Assembly: GCA_019058015.1 (NCBI GenBank)
Contig: JAHLWH010000200.1
Location: 1 to 25,158 of the forward strand
DNA: 25,158 bases
Reading direction: 5' to 3'
Source: Promethearchaeota archaeon
GTDB lineage: Archaea; Asgardarchaeota; Lokiarchaeia; Sigyniarchaeales; SOKP01
The notes below the pieces were generated by a model. It had not been told where the DNA came from. It was given only the letters and a program-made list of their open reading frames with translations, and did no database searches. Position 1 is the stretch's first letter; each line of letters opens with the position of its first letter. Shown in pieces: positions 1,493 to 18,952 of this stretch. The position numbers and the translations under genes are program-made.

Positions 1493-2097
1493 TTAAATAA
1501 TTTTTTTAATTAATATTAAAATTCTATCTGAAGATTTTTTTAAACTTTTAAATCCAGGTGAATGAAGACTTTTGAAAATTTTATTTTTAACTTGATAATT
1601 TACTGTGCTCATTTTAATTCCTATTTTATTACATACGTGTACAAAAGGGATGGAATCTATTCCCAATGCAATCATTGTTAAAATAAAAATTACTCCTACT
1701 ATGTCATCATCTTTTGTATTTTTTATATAAGGCCAAAATTTTTTAAAAATCTCTTGAGATTTATTAGTAAAACCTTTGTCAAATCTAAAAATTTCTTTTA
1801 TTTTATTTTTTTTTTTTTGAGAATAATGGTTTTTCTATCTCTTTTAAAATAAGTCGGATAAAAAATCGCTGCTTGCTTTAAAATTTTAGTAAATTCTTTT
1901 TTATTTGAATTGATCTTTTCTATAAAATCAGCAATTTTAATGTCAAATCCTTTTGCTTTAAAAACCATATAAATTATTACTGGGGCTAACTTTTTTGGTG
2001 ACCTTGATTTAGTTCCTTTTCTCATCTGTTTCCATATCTGTAAAAAAATCTGAATACATTCTTCATATAAGTTTGGATATTTTACTGAAATTTTTAA
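1493..2097 (-). pseudogene. TFB/TFIIB cyclin-repeat-like gene, frameshifted at an A13 run and apparently 5'-truncated
   Basis: ORF 1798..2025 (…KGTKSRSPKKLAPVIIYMVFK…) resembles cyclin repeat 1 (GRSP..A..Y). A -1 shift in the A13 (T1806-1818) gives KEIFRFDKGFTNKSQEIFKKFWPYIKNTKDDDIVGVIFILT, in frame with ORF 1493..1675 (VCNKIGIKMSTV, an HTH-like end of repeat 2). The upstream frame is open to a TGA at 2098-2100. No Zn ribbon. Confidence 0.65.
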
Positions 2098-2220
2098 TCA
2101 TATCAAGAAAGTTATAAAACACAAGTTTTTAAAGAAAAAATATCATTTCATCTTTTTTTCTTTATATATTTTGATTATTATTTTCTCATAAAAGATAATT
2201 GAACGATCAAATTTTGATGA

Positions 2221-2556
2221 GTGATGAGTAAAACAAGTGTGTTAAAAATATTTGGAGTATTTTCAATAGGTATAATATCATTATTGGTATTTTTCCAAGA
2301 TGAAATTATGGTCCATCTTATTGATCCAATCCAAGATATTTTTAGATATATATTTAATTTAATTCCAGTGATATTATTTTCCGCAAGCGGAATATTTTTA
2401 ATAAGCGGACTTATAAGTAAAAGGAATAGAGTAAGTTGTCTCATATTCAGTGCATTATGTTTCTTATTTGGGTTCTGGTTATCTAATCCAAGTGGTTTAG
2501 AAGATATTGCAAATATGTTTGCTGGAAGACCAGAAACTCCAAAAGGTTGGCATTAA
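2221..2556 (+). CDS. Small membrane protein, 3 predicted TM helices
   Basis: 111 aa. Hydrophobic segments at about aa 8-25, 41-65 and 71-87, with a basic loop SKRNR between the last two. Confidence 0.7.
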   Translation: MMSKTSVLKIFGVFSIGIISLLVFFQDEIMVHLIDPIQDIFRYIFNLIPVILFSASGIFLISGLISKRNRVSCLIFSALCFLFGFWLSNPSGLEDIANMFAGRPETPKGWH

Positions 2557-2582
2557 TTAAAAAAATGGGGGTAAAATATAAA

Positions 2583-2840
2583 ATGTTTAATTTGTTTCAA
2601 TTTCCAGACATAATTGATATATTTACAAATCAATTACCTGTAAACTTAGCAGAGTTTTGGCAGTTTTTAAGAGCAATTCTTTCATTATTGGGACTAACAG
2701 GACTTGTCATTTCAATTGTGTGTCTTTTACTCTCGAATAAAGTAAAATTTAAAGGATTATTGAGTTTTATGATATTTTCATTCATTTTATGTTTAATTTG
2801 CGGCTTCGATACTGGATTGATCTATTTTAAGATTATTTAA
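2583..2840 (+). CDS. Small membrane protein, 2-TM helical hairpin
   Basis: Likely start ATG 2583 (MFNLFQFP…) after a GGGGGT SD-like motif; the ORF track starts at 2547. Two hydrophobic helices joined by basic loop SNKVKFK. Confidence 0.7.
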   Translation: MFNLFQFPDIIDIFTNQLPVNLAEFWQFLRAILSLLGLTGLVISIVCLLLSNKVKFKGLLSFMIFSFILCLICGFDTGLIYFKII

Positions 2841-2966
2841 ATTAAAAATTAATTTGCTTTAAATTAATTTAAGAGGAAAAAATTAACTATTTTTAATTAT
2901 TCTAATTTTTTCTTTTAAATATCTTCATTGTATAATTATTTCAAAATTTAAGAAATTTTGATAATA

Positions 2967-4145
2967 ATGACAGAATTAAAATTAGTGAAAGGCATTCAAG
3001 CAAGACATATTAAGATTTTTACAGAGAACGGTATTACTACAGCAGAAGCTCTTGCTATGTCGGGTTTTAAGAGTATTACTGCAATGGAAGGTATTGGAGA
3101 AGCAGCTTCTAAAAAACTTATTTGGAATGCCAGAAGTGCTTTGGGAATGAGTAGTTTTAAAGCAATATCAGAGTTCCAAGAAAATCATGAATATATTAGC
3201 ACAGGTTCTTTAAATTTTAATGCAATTTTAGGAGGTGGTATAGAAACAGGTTTTATAACAGAAGTTTATGGTCCATTTAAATCCGGAAAGACCAATTTAG
3301 CGCACACTTTGTGTGTTACTACACAATTACCAAAAGGAAAAGGTGGATTAAGTGGTGCTGTGATATATATTGATACTGAAAATACATTTTCGAAAGAAAA
3401 AATCAAACGAATTACCAGAAGATTTGGTCTTAAACCCGAAAATGTACTCTCGCACATTTATCATGCGAGAATTTATAGTTCTGATCATCAAGCTCAAATG
3501 ATTTTAGAAGCGGAGAAACTCGTAAAAGAAAAAAATGTCAGATTAATAATTTTAGATAGTTTAATGGCGCTTCTTCGAGCAGAATACATCGGAATTGGAA
3601 TGCTTCCACAACGACAAGCTACATTAAATCAAATGATTCATGCTCTTTCCAGAATTGCAGAGAGTTATAATATTGCGATCCTCGTAACAAATCAGGTTGC
3701 CCAACAAATGAAGGGAATGTTCAGCGGTATTGATGCAATTGGAGGGAATATCGTCGCTCATGGCTGCCAGATTCGGGTGATGTTTAAGACAAAAGGGTTC
3801 GCCGCGAATAGTTCTCTTGAAAGAAAGGCAATTATTGTTGATGCACCTGATTTACCTCCTGAGGAATGCCAATTTTATATAACTCCAGCAGGGATTGCAG
3901 ACACAGAAAAAACAGATTTTTCAAGTATGGAAGAAAATATAAAACCCAAATTTGTTATGGTTAATGATGAACTTACCTTAGAAAAAATTAGAGGAATAGG
4001 AAAAAACATAATGGAGAAATTGGAAAAAATAGGAATTACTACTACTGAGCAATTGAAAAATACAAATCCTGATGATCTTGCTAAAGACTTGCCAGGTATT
4101 TCAAGTAAAAAAGTAAAAGAATGGATTGAACAAATTCCTGCTTAG
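2967..4145 (+). CDS. radA: RadA/Rad51-family recombinase with additional C-terminal helix-hairpin-helix domain
   Basis: N-terminal HhH (GITTAEALA…EGIGE), 'ISTGSLNFNAILGGGIETGFITEVYG', Walker A GPFKSGKT, YIDTENTF, Walker B LIILDS, RAEYIG, TNQV, IGGNIVAH. C-terminal 'LEKIRGIGK…GITTTEQL…LPGIS'. ATG at 2967; the ORF track starts at TTG 2958. Confidence 0.9.
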   Translation: MTELKLVKGIQARHIKIFTENGITTAEALAMSGFKSITAMEGIGEAASKKLIWNARSALGMSSFKAISEFQENHEYISTGSLNFNAILGGGIETGFITEVYGPFKSGKTNLAHTLCVTTQLPKGKGGLSGAVIYIDTENTFSKEKIKRITRRFGLKPENVLSHIYHARIYSSDHQAQMILEAEKLVKEKNVRLIILDSLMALLRAEYIGIGMLPQRQATLNQMIHALSRIAESYNIAILVTNQVAQQMKGMFSGIDAIGGNIVAHGCQIRVMFKTKGFAANSSLERKAIIVDAPDLPPEECQFYITPAGIADTEKTDFSSMEENIKPKFVMVNDELTLEKIRGIGKNIMEKLEKIGITTTEQLKNTNPDDLAKDLPGISSKKVKEWIEQIPA

Positions 4146-14485: not shown

Positions 14486-15418
14486 ATGATAATGAGGGAT
14501 TTTAAAAACCAGCATATATTAAGTGCAAGAGATTTTTCTAGGGAAGAAATTGATTTTATTCTGGAAATCGGTAAAAAAATGATAAATAATAAGTATTCTA
14601 AATTATTAGATAATAAGATAATGGCTGCTTTATTTTTTGAACCTTCAACCAGAACAAGATTGAGTTTTGAATCTGCAATGCTTAGATTGGGAGGAAAAGT
14701 TATTGGATTTCAATCTCGAGATGTCTCATCAGTTAAAAAGGGAGAATCTATTGCAGATACTATTAGAACAGTTGAAAATTATTCAGACGTTATTGTAATG
14801 CGTCATTCTTTGGAAGGTGTAGCACGTATGGCAGCCAAATTTTCTTCAATTCCAATTATTAATGGTGGATCAGGAAGCGCAGAACATCCTACACAGGCGT
14901 TATTAGATTTATTTACAATCAAAGAAGAATGTGGAACTATTGATGGACTAAACATTGGACTCTGTGGTGATTTAAAATATGGCAGGACAGTTCATTCGCT
15001 AGCCTATCTTTTTAGTAATTATAATATAAATTTATATTTTATATCTCCTGCTTCATTGAGAATGCGATTTAGAATAATTGATTGGTTGCGCGACAAAAAG
15101 ATGAAATTTAAAGAAACTGAAAAGTTCAAGGAGATATTACCAATTTTAGACATTCTATATATGACTCGAATTCAAGAAGAGCGTTTTCTGGAACCAGAAG
15201 AATTTGAAAAAGTTAAAGATGTATATGTTTTAAGTAAGAAGGATTTAGATAATACAAAAGATAGTTTTCGTCTGATGCATCCTTTACCAAGATTAGGTGA
15301 AATATCTCCAGATATTGATAAATCTCCTAAAGCAATTTATTTTAAGCAAATGAAATATGGGTTATATCTAAGAATGGCACTGCTTGCATTAGTATTAAAA
15401 GGAAATAATTTTATATAG
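14486..15418 (+). CDS. pyrB: Aspartate carbamoyltransferase catalytic subunit
   Basis: 'FFEPSTRTRLSF', 'HPTQALLD', 'GDLKYGRTVHSL', 'TRIQEER' and 'MHPLPR'. Confidence 0.97.
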   Translation: MIMRDFKNQHILSARDFSREEIDFILEIGKKMINNKYSKLLDNKIMAALFFEPSTRTRLSFESAMLRLGGKVIGFQSRDVSSVKKGESIADTIRTVENYSDVIVMRHSLEGVARMAAKFSSIPIINGGSGSAEHPTQALLDLFTIKEECGTIDGLNIGLCGDLKYGRTVHSLAYLFSNYNINLYFISPASLRMRFRIIDWLRDKKMKFKETEKFKEILPILDILYMTRIQEERFLEPEEFEKVKDVYVLSKKDLDNTKDSFRLMHPLPRLGEISPDIDKSPKAIYFKQMKYGLYLRMALLALVLKGNNFI

Positions 15419-15421
15419 ATT

Positions 15422-17551
15422 TTATAAAAATCTATTTATAATTTTTTTATTTAAGAATTCAGAATCTATATATTGAGTGTCTGGTCTTATAAGAATACAT
15501 TTTTTGTCAATAGATTCATTGTAATAATTTAATTGTTTTGATGAAAAACAAAAATAATGAATCCCATATTTAATTAAATATTTTACCTTTTCATAGAAAT
15601 CTTCTATATTTTTTGAATCGGGTAATAATATATTAAAAAGCGTGCCCCCATCTACTATTTTTTGAAATATTTTAAATAATGAGACTTTTTTTTCAAAATT
15701 CAATTTTGATTCAAATCGTATGAATTCTGTACTGAAACTATCATATTTATGAGAAATTTTATCAAATTCTAAATTCCATCTATTCATAAGATAATTATCT
15801 ACATGAGGTTGGGAGAAAATGAAGTATTCATTTTGTTCATTATTCATTTCATTTATTCTGTTATTAATTCTAATCAAAATTTTTTTTGCAAACTCTTGAC
15901 TTTGGTCAATTCGATCTAGCTCGATATTACAATGATATAGAATGGATTCATTTAAACCAAAAAAACTGAATGCTTTAAAAGCATGATCAGGTAATCCAAA
16001 ATCTTTTTTATTAAAGAGAATTCTAGAAAGAGACTGCCAATGATGAAATGAATTTAAATATTTTTTTATTAAATCTTGTTTTATTTTAAAAATTTCAAAT
16101 ATCGCTGTGATATTTAAATCTAATAATTCTAGAAAGTGTTGATCATTTTGTTTTGATTCTAGTGCAATTTTTGGTAAATTTATAAAGATTTTATCTAATA
16201 ATATTTTGTTAAATGAATTAGGGATGGAATCAAAATTTTGAGTAATTGAAGTTAATATATTGTTTATTGGATTTGATCCTCGATTTCTATAGAAAAGTAA
16301 ATTTGATTTATCAATTATATTAAAGAATCGAGTGAGAACACTTTCTTTGAAGTTTTGAGAATTTATATCACTACAGTCATATAATATCAATGGATTTAAA
16401 TGAACAAAATTTTGATATCGATCAATTTTTATTGATTCAATCAAATCATTTTCTAATTCTATGATAAGACTCGGGTCAAATTCTCTCTTTCTTAAAAAAT
16501 CATGTGAAAAATCTAAACTGATTTGAGATTTTCCTATATTTAAATTTAAATTTAATTTAAAGAATTGCTCTAAAAGGAATAATAATAAATTTTTTGTATC
16601 TTTTTGATTAAATCTTGAAAGTATTGAAAGTAATATTTCATTAAACCTATATAATAAAATATCTTCATTAAAAAATTTCTTAATATCAGTTAGAATTGAG
16701 ACTAAATTTGAGAAATACGATTTTATTTGGGTTTTTTCAAGAGTTTCATCGATTTTTAGAAAATTTTTATCTATATTATTTATATTCTCTATATTAGATA
16801 TCGAAATAGACAAAGGACGTAAAGCCCAAGAATCTAAATGTAATAACGATATCTGCCCTGAAAGATAGAGGTCTGCTAATTCACGTGGTAATAAATTCAA
16901 TAATAGATATTGCTCTGATACTTCACTACCCATTTTTTTTAAAAATTCTTCAGGATTAGAAAATTGTTGGTTTCTTAATAAGGATTCTACTTCGAAAGGT
17001 GGTAAGCCTAATCGCGTAAGTTTGTGTCTATATTCCTCAAAACCTTTTTCAATTAAAATACCATTTAAATATTCTCTTATTAGAGGAGTAGTTAAGTAAT
17101 TTACTTTAGAATTAGATAACTTTAACTTAACTTCATTTGCAATTGTTCTTGCCAATTTTTCTGGCATTTCCGATTCTCGAATTAAATATTCAATGATTTT
17201 ATTTATATCAAATAGTTCAAAAGTGTAATTTGATGTCCGGATTTGGAGAATTCTTTTTTCTTCATTAATTATATCTCCTATGTCTAATAATTTCTCCAAT
17301 ATTCTCCTACCCAATTTTGTTAAAAAATAACCCTCGTCTCCTAATAATATGAAATTGTTTTCTTTTAGAATGTTTAAATGATATGAAATCTTACTACTAT
17401 CCCCTTTTTCTTCTAAAATTCTTCTCTTTAAAGCCATAAACGGAATTGGGCTTCTTATTTCATATAAAATCTTGAGAATTCCAAATCTTATATTTTTTCC
17501 AATTATTTGCAAATGTTTTTCTAAATTACTTGAACTGTCTTTTGTATTCAA
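15422..17551 (-). CDS. ArsR-like wHTH + ATP cone + degenerate class III (NrdD-like) ribonucleotide reductase barrel; probable pseudo-enzyme/regulator
   Basis: wHTH aa ~10-92 (IRFGILKIL…ISYHLNILKE…YFLTKLGR). ATP cone ('IRTS…FDINKI…LTTPLIRE…TRLGLP'). NrdD-like blocks 'LPRELADLYLSGQI', 'INLPKIALE', 'FGLNE', 'FQKIVDGG'. Catalytic Cys, Zn site and glycyl loop are absent. Confidence 0.8.
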   Translation of the reverse strand: MNTKDSSSNLEKHLQIIGKNIRFGILKILYEIRSPIPFMALKRRILEEKGDSSKISYHLNILKENNFILLGDEGYFLTKLGRRILEKLLDIGDIINEEKRILQIRTSNYTFELFDINKIIEYLIRESEMPEKLARTIANEVKLKLSNSKVNYLTTPLIREYLNGILIEKGFEEYRHKLTRLGLPPFEVESLLRNQQFSNPEEFLKKMGSEVSEQYLLLNLLPRELADLYLSGQISLLHLDSWALRPLSISISNIENINNIDKNFLKIDETLEKTQIKSYFSNLVSILTDIKKFFNEDILLYRFNEILLSILSRFNQKDTKNLLLFLLEQFFKLNLNLNIGKSQISLDFSHDFLRKREFDPSLIIELENDLIESIKIDRYQNFVHLNPLILYDCSDINSQNFKESVLTRFFNIIDKSNLLFYRNRGSNPINNILTSITQNFDSIPNSFNKILLDKIFINLPKIALESKQNDQHFLELLDLNITAIFEIFKIKQDLIKKYLNSFHHWQSLSRILFNKKDFGLPDHAFKAFSFFGLNESILYHCNIELDRIDQSQEFAKKILIRINNRINEMNNEQNEYFIFSQPHVDNYLMNRWNLEFDKISHKYDSFSTEFIRFESKLNFEKKVSLFKIFQKIVDGGTLFNILLPDSKNIEDFYEKVKYLIKYGIHYFCFSSKQLNYYNESIDKKCILIRPDTQYIDSEFLNKKIINRFL

Positions 17552-17726
17552 ATTGTTGTATCAATTTATTCTTCTTTTCTAAACTAGATTTAACCAAATA
17601 CAAATATAAAATTTGCTGATTCGATATAATTGGGAAAAATTAAGGATTTTTATTATCCTTTCCGACAAAAATCACTTTAGAATACAACAAATAATTAAGA
17701 AAAATATAGTAAAAGTATAGTTCTAA

Positions 17727-18344
17727 CTATCGAGCAGAAACCGCAATTCTTTCAATTTCGTCTTTTCTTTTAATTGCTTTAGAATTTTGACTTTTTTTTG
17801 AAGCCGCTATTAATTCCTGAGCGATAGCTTCTTCAATTGTAATTATATTACCATGTGTTTCATTGACAATAGCATGAACAAGTAATTTTAATGCAAGATC
17901 AACTCTACGCTGTGGAGCAATATCAACGGCACTTGCATATGAAATTCCACCCATTGCGATTTTTGTAGTTTCTTCTCTTGGAGCAACATTTTCAATTGCA
18001 TTAATTAACACTTGCAAAGGATTCATACCCGTTTTTAACTCAATTAATGAAAATGCAGTCTCAACCAATTTAATTAGTTTACTTTTTTTACCTGAATTAT
18101 AAGAGCTTTTATGACCCTTTACTTTTCCACTTATAAAACCCGGAGATTGAAGTTTATTAATAAAACGTTCTATAATAGAGATATTAGATTTCCAAAATCT
18201 TTTGTGCGTATGACGACCTTGAGAATCAGGTATTATAATCGGTTTTAAATTAATATATCTCTCTAAGCTATAATCATGAATTTCAATATCGAAATCCCAT
18301 TTATTAAAAAATTTTATTATGGGTTTTTTCTTTGTTTTGCTCAT
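17727..18344 (-). CDS. rps7: 30S ribosomal protein S7 (uS7)
   Basis: 'FNKWD', 'NPLQVLINAIENVAPREE', 'AVDIAPQRRVD' and 'KDEIERIAVSAR'. Likely ATG 18344; the ORF track starts at TTG 18359. Confidence 0.97.
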   Translation of the reverse strand: MSKTKKKPIIKFFNKWDFDIEIHDYSLERYINLKPIIIPDSQGRHTHKRFWKSNISIIERFINKLQSPGFISGKVKGHKSSYNSGKKSKLIKLVETAFSLIELKTGMNPLQVLINAIENVAPREETTKIAMGGISYASAVDIAPQRRVDLALKLLVHAIVNETHGNIITIEEAIAQELIAASKKSQNSKAIKRKDEIERIAVSAR

Positions 18345-18523
18345 ATGCTCACATAACAATCAAAAATATCTATTGTTGAATATAAAATTCCATTTCTCTT
18401 AAATTTATCTTTCACCTAAAGAAAAATTAGAAAGTAATGAAGCGAAAATAACAGTAAAATTTAATTAAAGTGATTAAATATTAAAATATAACAAAAAAAT
18501 TTTCACAATAAATTGAGTTTTAA

Positions 18524-18952
18524 ATGCCTAAGGGTCTATATAGTGCAAGAGCACTAAAACGAAATCGGAAAAAATTTAGATGGAGTAAGACAAAATATAA
18601 AAGAAAAAAGCTTAAATTAAAACAAAAAGCAGATCCATTACAAGGCGCCCCAGCTGCTGAAGGAATAGTGCTTGAGAAGGTGGGTAGAGAGAGTAAACAA
18701 CCTAACAGTGCAATACGTAAATGTCTTAGAGTCCAATTAAGAAAGAATGGCAAAACTATTACTGCCTTCCTTCCAGGTGATGGAGCGCTTAATTTCATCC
18801 AGGAACATGACACTGTATTGGTAGAGGGCATAGGTGGTGCAAAGGGAAGGGCAGTGGGTGATTTACCTGGTGTTAGGTGGAAAGTAACAAAGGTTAACGG
18901 AGTAAGTTTAGAAGCTTTAATAGCTGGAAAGCGAGAAAAAACTATGCGCTAA
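18524..18952 (+). CDS. rps12: 30S ribosomal protein S12 (uS12)
   Basis: 'PKGLYSAR', '[10 protein letters not shown]', 'TAFLPGDG' and '[10 protein letters not shown]'. Opposite strand to both neighbours. Confidence 0.98.

Follow-up and report, generated by a model that had tools for sequence, protein, structure and literature searches.

A winged-helix, catalytically dead paralogue of class III ribonucleotide reductase in a Promethearchaeota genome: a candidate nucleotide-sensing regulator

The repressor NrdR combines an ATP-cone with a zinc ribbon and has boxes at the promoters of ribonucleotide reductase (RNR) genes, often also at nrdR itself. Its oligomeric state switches with ATP and dATP, and it is present in most bacteria but in only some archaea, according to excerpts of PMC9110341. 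Here, we analyse a gene from a Promethearchaeota archaeon (NCBI GenBank assembly GCA_019058015.1, contig JAHLWH010000200.1, positions 1 to 25,158; this whole stretch of 25,158 nucleotides is referred to as the window). Its 709-residue product joins an N-terminal winged helix-turn-helix (wHTH) and an ATP-cone to a body resembling NrdD, the catalytic subunit of class III RNR. Judged from its sequence, the product is a pseudoenzyme, i.e., a paralogue of this subunit that would be incapable of radical chemistry. A conserved nine-base box, CCGACAAAA, is found both at this gene and at nrdD. With slightly better than even confidence, we read the protein as a regulator that senses nucleotides, binds DNA sequence-specifically and controls nrdD as well as its own gene; it would act like NrdR but stands outside the NrdR family. 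The locus thus probably holds a switch of an undescribed kind for the supply of DNA precursors.

The protein shares homology with NrdD, the anaerobic, glycyl-radical enzyme, from the ATP-cone through to the barrel's end. However, it is without both active-site cysteines, the HxHD motif, the zinc ribbon and the glycyl loop, and it carries an N-terminal wHTH, which is found in none of four catalytically complete relatives. With NrdR it has in common an ATP-cone linked to a putative nucleic-acid-binding domain, and a conserved box that occurs both at an RNR gene and at the gene of the protein itself. However, the putative nucleic-acid-binding domain is a winged helix here and a zinc ribbon in NrdR, and the homology is limited to the cone, which here is accompanied by a 530-residue dead enzyme body. 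The boxes also differ: here a single asymmetric 9-mer lies about 70 nt past the TATA word, while in NrdR systems paired palindromes lie over the transcript start.

Catalytically dead homologues of the RNR large subunit that are retained for another role are known from betaherpesviruses, i.e., M45/UL45. These proteins derive from class I RNR and act in host cell-death pathways by protein contacts. The likeness is that an RNR catalytic subunit has been repurposed after losing catalysis; the viral proteins, however, have neither a DNA-binding domain nor a link to nucleotide sensing.

To our knowledge, the control of RNR genes in archaea is largely unknown. In the full-text literature available outside subscription journals, we found no description of the family or of its architecture. 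The family terms are not mentioned in excerpts of a paper on RNR insertions (PMC9669993), nor is this family in excerpts of a review on glycyl-radical enzymes (PMC13450708), and in parts of a preprint on Tn7, nrdD appears only as an attachment site. Databases label the family as 'anaerobic ribonucleoside-triphosphate reductase'; given this enzyme-type name, metabolic reconstructions may count a reductase that is none.

Domain architecture and loss of catalytic features

The open reading frame (ORF) starts with TTG and is uninterrupted down to the stop codon at 15422-15424. Its orthologues in the 2/2 other genomes of the genus have the same length and are 91% identical. The gene and its parts are:

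15422..17551, minus strand: whole gene, wHTH + ATP-cone + dead NrdD-like body, 709 residues (ORF list and translation)
17294..17512, minus strand: winged helix-turn-helix, DUF7347, residues 14-86 (Pfam, E 1.5e-9)
17030..17245, minus strand: ATP-cone, residues 103-174 (Pfam, 28.9 bits, cut-off 25.8)
16808..17026, minus strand: best-conserved stretch of the NrdD body, HKLTRLG...LRPLS, residues 176-248 (many invariant columns)
16202..16807, minus strand: diverged middle of the barrel, residues 249-450, without finger loop and thiyl Cys (MAFFT, hhalign)
15536..16186, minus strand: C-terminal half of the barrel, residues 456-672, Pfam NRDD (E 5.4e-19)
15425..15535, minus strand: C-terminal tail, residues 673-709, without zinc-ribbon Cys and without Gly (comparison with relatives)

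The catalytic features are lost throughout. Compared with the NrdD of the same genome, the segment HVHML...RPFC reads SLLHL...RPLS in both the MAFFT and the BLASTP alignments, i.e., the Cys of RPxC is replaced by Ser and SLLH stands in place of HxHD, the motif that grips the substrate triphosphate in P. copri NrdD (excerpts of PMC11226230). Both sites lie within the best-conserved stretch, residues 176-248. The finger loop QCCR, with its two Cys, has no counterpart in the MAFFT alignment, and the CxxC...CxxC zinc site and the SRITGYY glycyl motif are absent. A first-pass annotation of the window, made from the sequence alone, had claimed the loss of the RPxC Cys, the finger-loop Cys and the C-terminal zinc site, and the alignment with the genome's own NrdD confirms all three. 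It had also taken 'IRPDTQY' in the tail for the former glycyl loop. There is indeed no RxxGY in the protein, but the equivalence of the two segments is not established, as MAFFT places 'IRPDTQY' elsewhere and dN/dS in the tail is about 1. The tail itself is confined to this genus-level clade, other Loki-type members being shorter by about 45 residues, and is possibly a vestige of the glycyl-radical domain.

The same losses are consistent among homologues. In 71 close members of the family, the column of the RPxC Cys holds S in 40, G in 30 and A in 1, while CxxC in the last 120 residues and RxxG[YFH] in the last 60 residues are found in 0/71. The sole invariant Cys among these members is C541, which is family-specific. 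For a wider sample, 117 representatives, i.e., those of at least 600 residues among the best 150 matches, were added to the NrdD alignment. A wHTH is carried by 110 of the 117, and none of these 110 has both Cys; the first Cys is found in one, some Cys in the loop columns in two, and HxH in two. All four zinc-ribbon Cys are kept in 56/110 and R/KxxG in 23/110, these being more distant long forms. The four representatives with a full catalytic set are all without a wHTH. As both Cys are found in none of the wHTH-bearing representatives, a refutation by close homologues that retain the catalytic residues fails.

A profile alignment (hhalign) of the 71 family members against 20 Asgard NrdDs covers residues 106-656 in 531 columns (probability 99.65%, E 4.4e-25), and the body is therefore NrdD-like along its full length, although residues ~250-450 are very diverged. 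The full-length barrel proposed in the first-pass annotation thus stands, as does its N-terminal winged HTH, which is the DUF7347 match listed above. In BLASTP against the genome's own NrdD, the identity is 36% over residues 114-248 and 23% over residues 440-670. Pfam NRDD matches 71/71 family members; in this protein, the match spans residues 456-672 only. On the NrdD equivalog TIGR02487 (NCBIfam), the protein scores 68.4 bits, below the cut-off of 326.35. Searched against PDB sequences, the whole protein has a weak match to T. maritima NrdD (4coi/4u3e, E 2e-3), while the family profile has no match at E <= 0.01 and the wHTH alone no meaningful match to a solved structure. Among the 71 family members, the wHTH profile DUF7347 matches 71/71, HTH_45 37, HTH_20 15 and HTH_5 2. 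The ATP-cone is matched at E <= 0.01 in 61/71 members, hhalign aligns its core with the active paralogue's cone, and in a genome-wide search it scores 32.5 bits, where the intact NrdD's own cone has 29.8.

Might the barrel have adopted a new chemistry, which uses neither a thiyl nor a glycyl radical but a new set of conserved residues? The C-terminal half of the barrel does hold family-specific invariant residues, i.e., LDK..NL and the polar H540, C541 and QPH 581-583. However, the motif for the substrate triphosphate is lost, the middle of the barrel is poorly conserved and Pfam shows no cofactor motif, and we regard such an enzyme as extremely unlikely.

The genome has a separate, active-looking RNR, which the first-pass annotation had suggested looking for. 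An intact NrdD of 720 residues on contig C87 scores 480 bits on Pfam NRDD and holds HVHML...RPFC, QCCR, a CxxC...C..RC zinc site and SRITGYY. Its putative activase NrdG2 is on contig C215 (154 bits); no nrdG lies in the window, as first noted. There is also a class II RNR, whose gene (C267:42007-45312, minus strand) encodes an ATP-cone and a LAGLIDADG intein, and inteins are seen in several NrdD relatives of the protein collection as well. No match to NrdR (TIGR00244) was found in this genome, whose assembly has 3.84 Mb in 283 contigs and is 94% complete. In the distant lineages a real NrdD and the dead paralogue are found together in 5/5 genomes. At one locus (L023; genome G007, contig C56), pyrB, the dead wHTH paralogue and the real nrdD are adjacent, with pyrB and the paralogue co-directional and nrdD convergent on both.

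Constraint, breadth and origin of the family

The gene is under purifying selection, as had been asked of it in the first-pass annotation, and the ATP-cone and the wHTH are its most constrained parts. Rates were estimated by Nei-Gojobori from the three genomes of the genus, where dS is 0.14-0.17 and the estimates are hence noisy. Over the whole gene, dN/dS is 0.24-0.28. The lowest values are found in the ATP-cone (0.06-0.21), followed by the wHTH (0.07-0.19) and residues 181-250 (0.08-0.21), with higher values in the middle of the barrel (0.24-0.40) and in its C-terminal half (0.33-0.35); for comparison, pyrB has 0.12-0.22. Only in the tail, residues 666-709, does dN/dS reach about 1 or more.

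This last value is what could be said for a gene copy on its way to loss. However, the frame is intact in 3/3 genomes of the genus, full-length orthologues are present in 25/25 sampled genomes of the taxonomic family as well as in 2/2 of a second family of the order, and the low rate over the whole gene holds against it too. Decay is already refuted by this conservation, and we give it practically no weight.

The family reaches far beyond this order. Five more Asgard families have wHTH-bearing forms of ~770 residues, and a profile search among 1.84 billion cluster representatives gave 1099 matches at E <= 1e-3, 617 at E <= 1e-10 and 243 at E <= 1e-30. By names and atlas clusters, the combination of wHTH, cone and NRDD is found in Jordarchaeia/Freyarchaeota, Atabeyarchaeum, Helarchaeota and Odinarchaeia and, beyond Asgard, in Bathyarchaeota, Nitrososphaerota, Nanobdellota and Thermoproteota, the atlas assignments resting on few labelled members. 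Short proteins with wHTH and cone but no barrel gave 48 matches, most of them marked partial or on short contigs.

In a quick tree of 53 selected rows (IQ-TREE, LG+G4, SH-aLRT support only), the 37/37 rows with a wHTH form a single group (SH-aLRT 100). From this tree, the wHTH-bearing dead paralogues share one origin. The short Loki-type forms (support 99) sit among the long forms with a zinc ribbon, and the clade of this window, the only one with the 45-residue tail, is sister to the remaining short forms. The nearest active row is P0346, a cluster that includes the NrdD of Methanococcus vannielii.

A second dead NrdD paralogue, here called par3, has an ATP-cone and NRDD in ~604 residues (L026:1613-3424, plus strand, and L027). 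Like the protein studied here, it lacks the catalytic Cys residues, the finger loop and the C-terminal domain. However, it has no wHTH, and as it branches within the Asgard NrdD clade, its loss is independent and more recent. It also has another neighbour, being followed by a ~480-residue Gtr1/RagA-like GTPase gene with a weakly Folliculin-like N-terminus. The first residues of the par3 and GTPase gene products match. In the genome of the window (C105; L028:1268-1711 and 1924-3366), only a stand-alone ATP-cone protein of 147 residues is left before the GTPase gene.

The same type of wHTH, DUF7347, also occurs in an 843-residue protein of this genome (C72; L158:126-2657, plus strand), where it precedes HdrA-like FAD/Fe-S and MvhD (FlpD) domains.

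The wHTH need not serve DNA binding. The protein could be a dead partner of the active NrdD, or of NrdG or aspartate carbamoyltransferase (ATCase), or a nucleotide buffer, with the wHTH as a contact or tether module. This would suit the fact that the best-conserved part of the body directly follows the cone and is the part that is 36% identical to the genome's own NrdD. The zinc Cys and R/KxxG of the more distant forms suggest a kept interaction surface, e.g., for an activase, and the same wHTH type is fused to the enzyme-like HdrA/MvhD protein. However, the wHTH is constrained as strongly as the cone, and the zinc ribbon and the Gly loop are wholly lost in this protein and in all Loki-type members. 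We consider such a role improbable, also because of the nucleotide-level selection described in the next section.

The nine-base box at nrdD and at the paralogue gene

In this genome, one 9-mer that contains G+C, CCGACAAAA, is common to the regions upstream of nrdD and of the paralogue gene. It is found on the sense strand in 16/16 nrdD leaders (this genome and 15 others of the taxonomic family), exactly 70 nt past the nearest TTTATAT in 16/16, although the sequence between the two differs among genera. Upstream of the paralogue gene, the following features are found:

17662..17670, plus strand: CCGACAAAA box, antisense to the gene, 119 nt before the start codon (exact in 3/3 genomes of the genus)
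17552..17726, minus strand: candidate promoter region, from the S7 gene to this gene (from sequence, with orthologous promoters compared)
17622-17636 and 17601-17614, minus strand: TATA-like words (sequence)
17643-17659, minus strand: imperfect inverted repeat (sequence)

The sequence that flanks this box varies across the three genomes of the genus. In other genera, the box lies within the ORF: CCGACAAA is found at codons 3-5 (start, NNN, NCC GAC AAA) in 19/21 loci, the other two having one mismatch, and it lies 75-79 nt past a TATA-like word in 16/18 parsed loci. The residue at codon 3 varies (T/S/A/P) and both C bases are invariant. In the background of these ORFs, GAC makes up 38/268 Asp codons and NCC 80/849 NCN codons. 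A variable residue over fixed bases, written in rare codons, shows that selection acts at the nucleotide level, which a role in protein contacts leaves unexplained at the 5' end of this gene. In the sister family (f2), the box is again antisense and upstream of the paralogue gene, in 2/2 loci.

The box is specific in several respects. Counted on both strands, the 3.84 Mb of the assembly hold 27 exact sites, of which about 15 fall outside ORFs of 80 residues or more, and within this genome only the site at nrdD lies ~70 nt past a TATA-like word. No further copies of CCGACAAAA were found in the ~59 kb of loci L007-L018. When the 8-mers of 19 promoters of the paralogue gene were compared with those of 13 nrdD upstream regions, only the box word was common to most of both, where the paralogue set was anchored on the box and only the nrdD count is free. 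Of a regulator like NrdR, boxes would be expected at RNR genes and at its own gene; a shared conserved box is present at both places here, and this protein is a candidate for its reader.

We suggest that CCGACAAAA is read by the N-terminal winged helix and that ATP/dATP is sensed by the cone. Behind its cone, the enzyme has an effector and dimer region; the corresponding conserved N-terminal part of the dead body may in addition sense dNTP effectors, and the dead barrel would serve as a scaffold for dimers or oligomers. A change of conformation or oligomer driven by nucleotides would then set the occupancy of the box, as in bacterial NrdR. At nrdD, the box lies 70 nt past the TATA word, i.e., ~45 nt into the transcribed region, which suggests that the factor acts as a roadblock or repressor. 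At its own gene, the box precedes the putative TATA and lies on the opposite strand, so the sign of the autoregulation may differ. The sequence comparisons show the architecture, the catalytic losses, the purifying selection and the conserved placement of the box; from these patterns we infer the reading of the box by this protein, the binding of nucleotides by its cone and the direction of regulation. If this is true, it would be a clear case of the allosteric apparatus of an enzyme reused as the sensor of a transcription factor, and it carries a ready test, as the box has nine defined bases at defined positions.

Several observations weigh against a regulator of this kind. First, the link between box and protein is one of co-occurrence only, and the reader may be a different factor. 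The box also lacks dyad symmetry, which would be uncommon in the site of a dimeric wHTH protein, and the presence of the same wHTH type on an intact-looking HdrA/MvhD-like redox protein means that the fusion alone is no proof of a regulator. Secondly, of the cone, which was first annotated as intact-looking, the profile match holds but not all of the residues: the lysines K108 and K111, which at least 90% of the family retain, are replaced by N and F in this genus, and the cone alone matched no solved cone among PDB sequences. Thirdly, the box is missing at places where it might be expected. The class II RNR gene of this genome has no box within 400 nt (0/3 in the genus), and in two Asgard families without the paralogue it is upstream of nrdD in 0/13 genomes, although phylogenetic distance confounds this comparison. 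Five distant lineages with the long form showed no shared box; there, nrdD apparently lies behind another gene, so the promoters are probably outside the examined stretches. Finally, 35 boxes are on the sense strand, within transcribed sequence and at a constant spacing from the promoter, and these would suit a signal at the RNA level too.

On that last view, the target would be RNA, i.e., the nascent nrdD leader and the paralogue's own mRNA at its 5' end, bound by this protein or by another factor with control of elongation, stability or translation. The sense-strand sites, 16/16 in the nrdD leaders and 19/19 within the ORF, and the near-fixed distance to the TATA word in both sets (70 nt at nrdD, 75-79 nt at the paralogue gene) would fit this well. 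However, the box is antisense and upstream in 3/3 genomes of this genus, in 2/2 loci of family f2 and at two class II RNR genes. In addition, RNAalifold gave no conserved pairs in 11 leaders and Rfam no match, and we therefore rejected a structured RNA element in the nrdD leader; a hairpin TTTTGTC...GACAAAA found in some nrdD leaders is not conserved. A leader peptide at nrdD is unlikely and was rejected, since a start-like codon precedes the box in only 10/16 leaders and two leaders have a stop codon there. Taken together, an RNA-level signal seems very unlikely to us.

Other genes carry the box in part of the genomes. In 5/23 genomes it precedes the class II RNR gene, in two of these in the antisense orientation upstream of the start. 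Upstream of Orc1/Cdc6 it is found in 6/25 genomes, three of which are this genus, and Orc1/Cdc6 was discounted as a member of the system for this reason. In this genome, the site at C87:32926 is 280 nt upstream of Orc1/Cdc6 (C87:31332-32654) and is conserved only in this genus. Orc1/Cdc6 is ~25 kb from nrdD on C87, and the two genes are also linked in three other genomes.

The nrdD leaders of most genera also have a block with the 10-base palindrome TTAACGTTAA, or a near copy, just past the TATA word. This block is separate from the box (for example L036:218-353, minus strand).

The pyrB neighbour and the surrounding genes

The paralogue gene ends tail to tail with pyrB, and two genes flank it directly:

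14486..15418, plus strand: pyrB, catalytic chain of aspartate carbamoyltransferase, convergent (Pfam OTCace_N, OTCace)
17727..18359, minus strand: ribosomal protein S7 gene, directly upstream on the same strand (Pfam)

The stop of pyrB ends at 15418, 3 nt from the stop of the paralogue gene. The two genes adjoin in 18/21 loci, across distant lineages; at L019, L031 and the short L024, pyrB was not found. The first-pass annotation had pointed to a tie with pyrB. As adjacency, this tie is conserved, but the genes are convergent in 16 of the 18 adjacent loci, which leaves no shared promoter, and neither the box nor another shared element is found upstream of pyrB in the window. Only in L023 and L025 is pyrB co-directional, just upstream. 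The idea that the protein replaces PyrI was rejected, as pyrI is present elsewhere in the genome, on C177.

The linkage bears on whether the protein is a DNA-binding regulator whose targets lie elsewhere, e.g., at pyrB or at a second promoter element, while CCGACAAAA is read by another factor. The frequent adjacency, and the two loci with pyrB co-directional, could be taken in this sense. So could a second element, ATCACC.A.ATAT, which lies 125-128 nt before the box in 14/19 promoters of the paralogue gene in other genera (for example L010, L012, L017 and L085), and in a 15th it is found at -100. The upstream regions of nrdD are without it (0/16), and other sequence stands in its place in the genus of this window. 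However, the lack of any such element upstream of pyrB and the lack of a common promoter in the convergent loci argue against pyrB as a target, and the box is the sole word common to the 5' region of the paralogue gene and to nrdD. We therefore hold a separate reader of the box to be unlikely.

A wider proposal, which we regard as possible but lean against, is that archaea without NrdR regulate their deoxyribonucleotide supply by a transcription factor built from the reductase itself, i.e., a dead NrdD with both allosteric sensors, the CCGACAAAA box and a coupling to pyrimidines by pyrB. The ATP-cone would then gauge the ratio of ATP to dATP and the effector and dimer region the balance of dNTPs. 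Their state would set the occupancy of the box, which lies 70 nt past the TATA box at nrdD and is also found at the paralogue's own gene and, for some genera, at the gene for class II RNR. Through its lasting linkage to pyrB, this sensor would be tied to pyrimidine synthesis as well.

On its other side, the paralogue gene comes after the cluster rpoA1, rpoA2, L30e, NusA, S12 and S7 (Pfam), and S7 is upstream of it in 10/12 loci of the taxonomic family. PCNA, PriL, PriS and GINS51 are found at 8.8-13 kb of the window, 2.5-6.6 kb past pyrB. The window is contig C204 of the assembly. Its G+C content is about 23-35% along its length, and its relatives are named Promethearchaeota (Lokiarchaeota) and other Asgard groups. 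The gene for ribosomal protein S12 (18524-18952, plus strand) is on the opposite strand to the rest of its cluster, with which it is normally co-directional.

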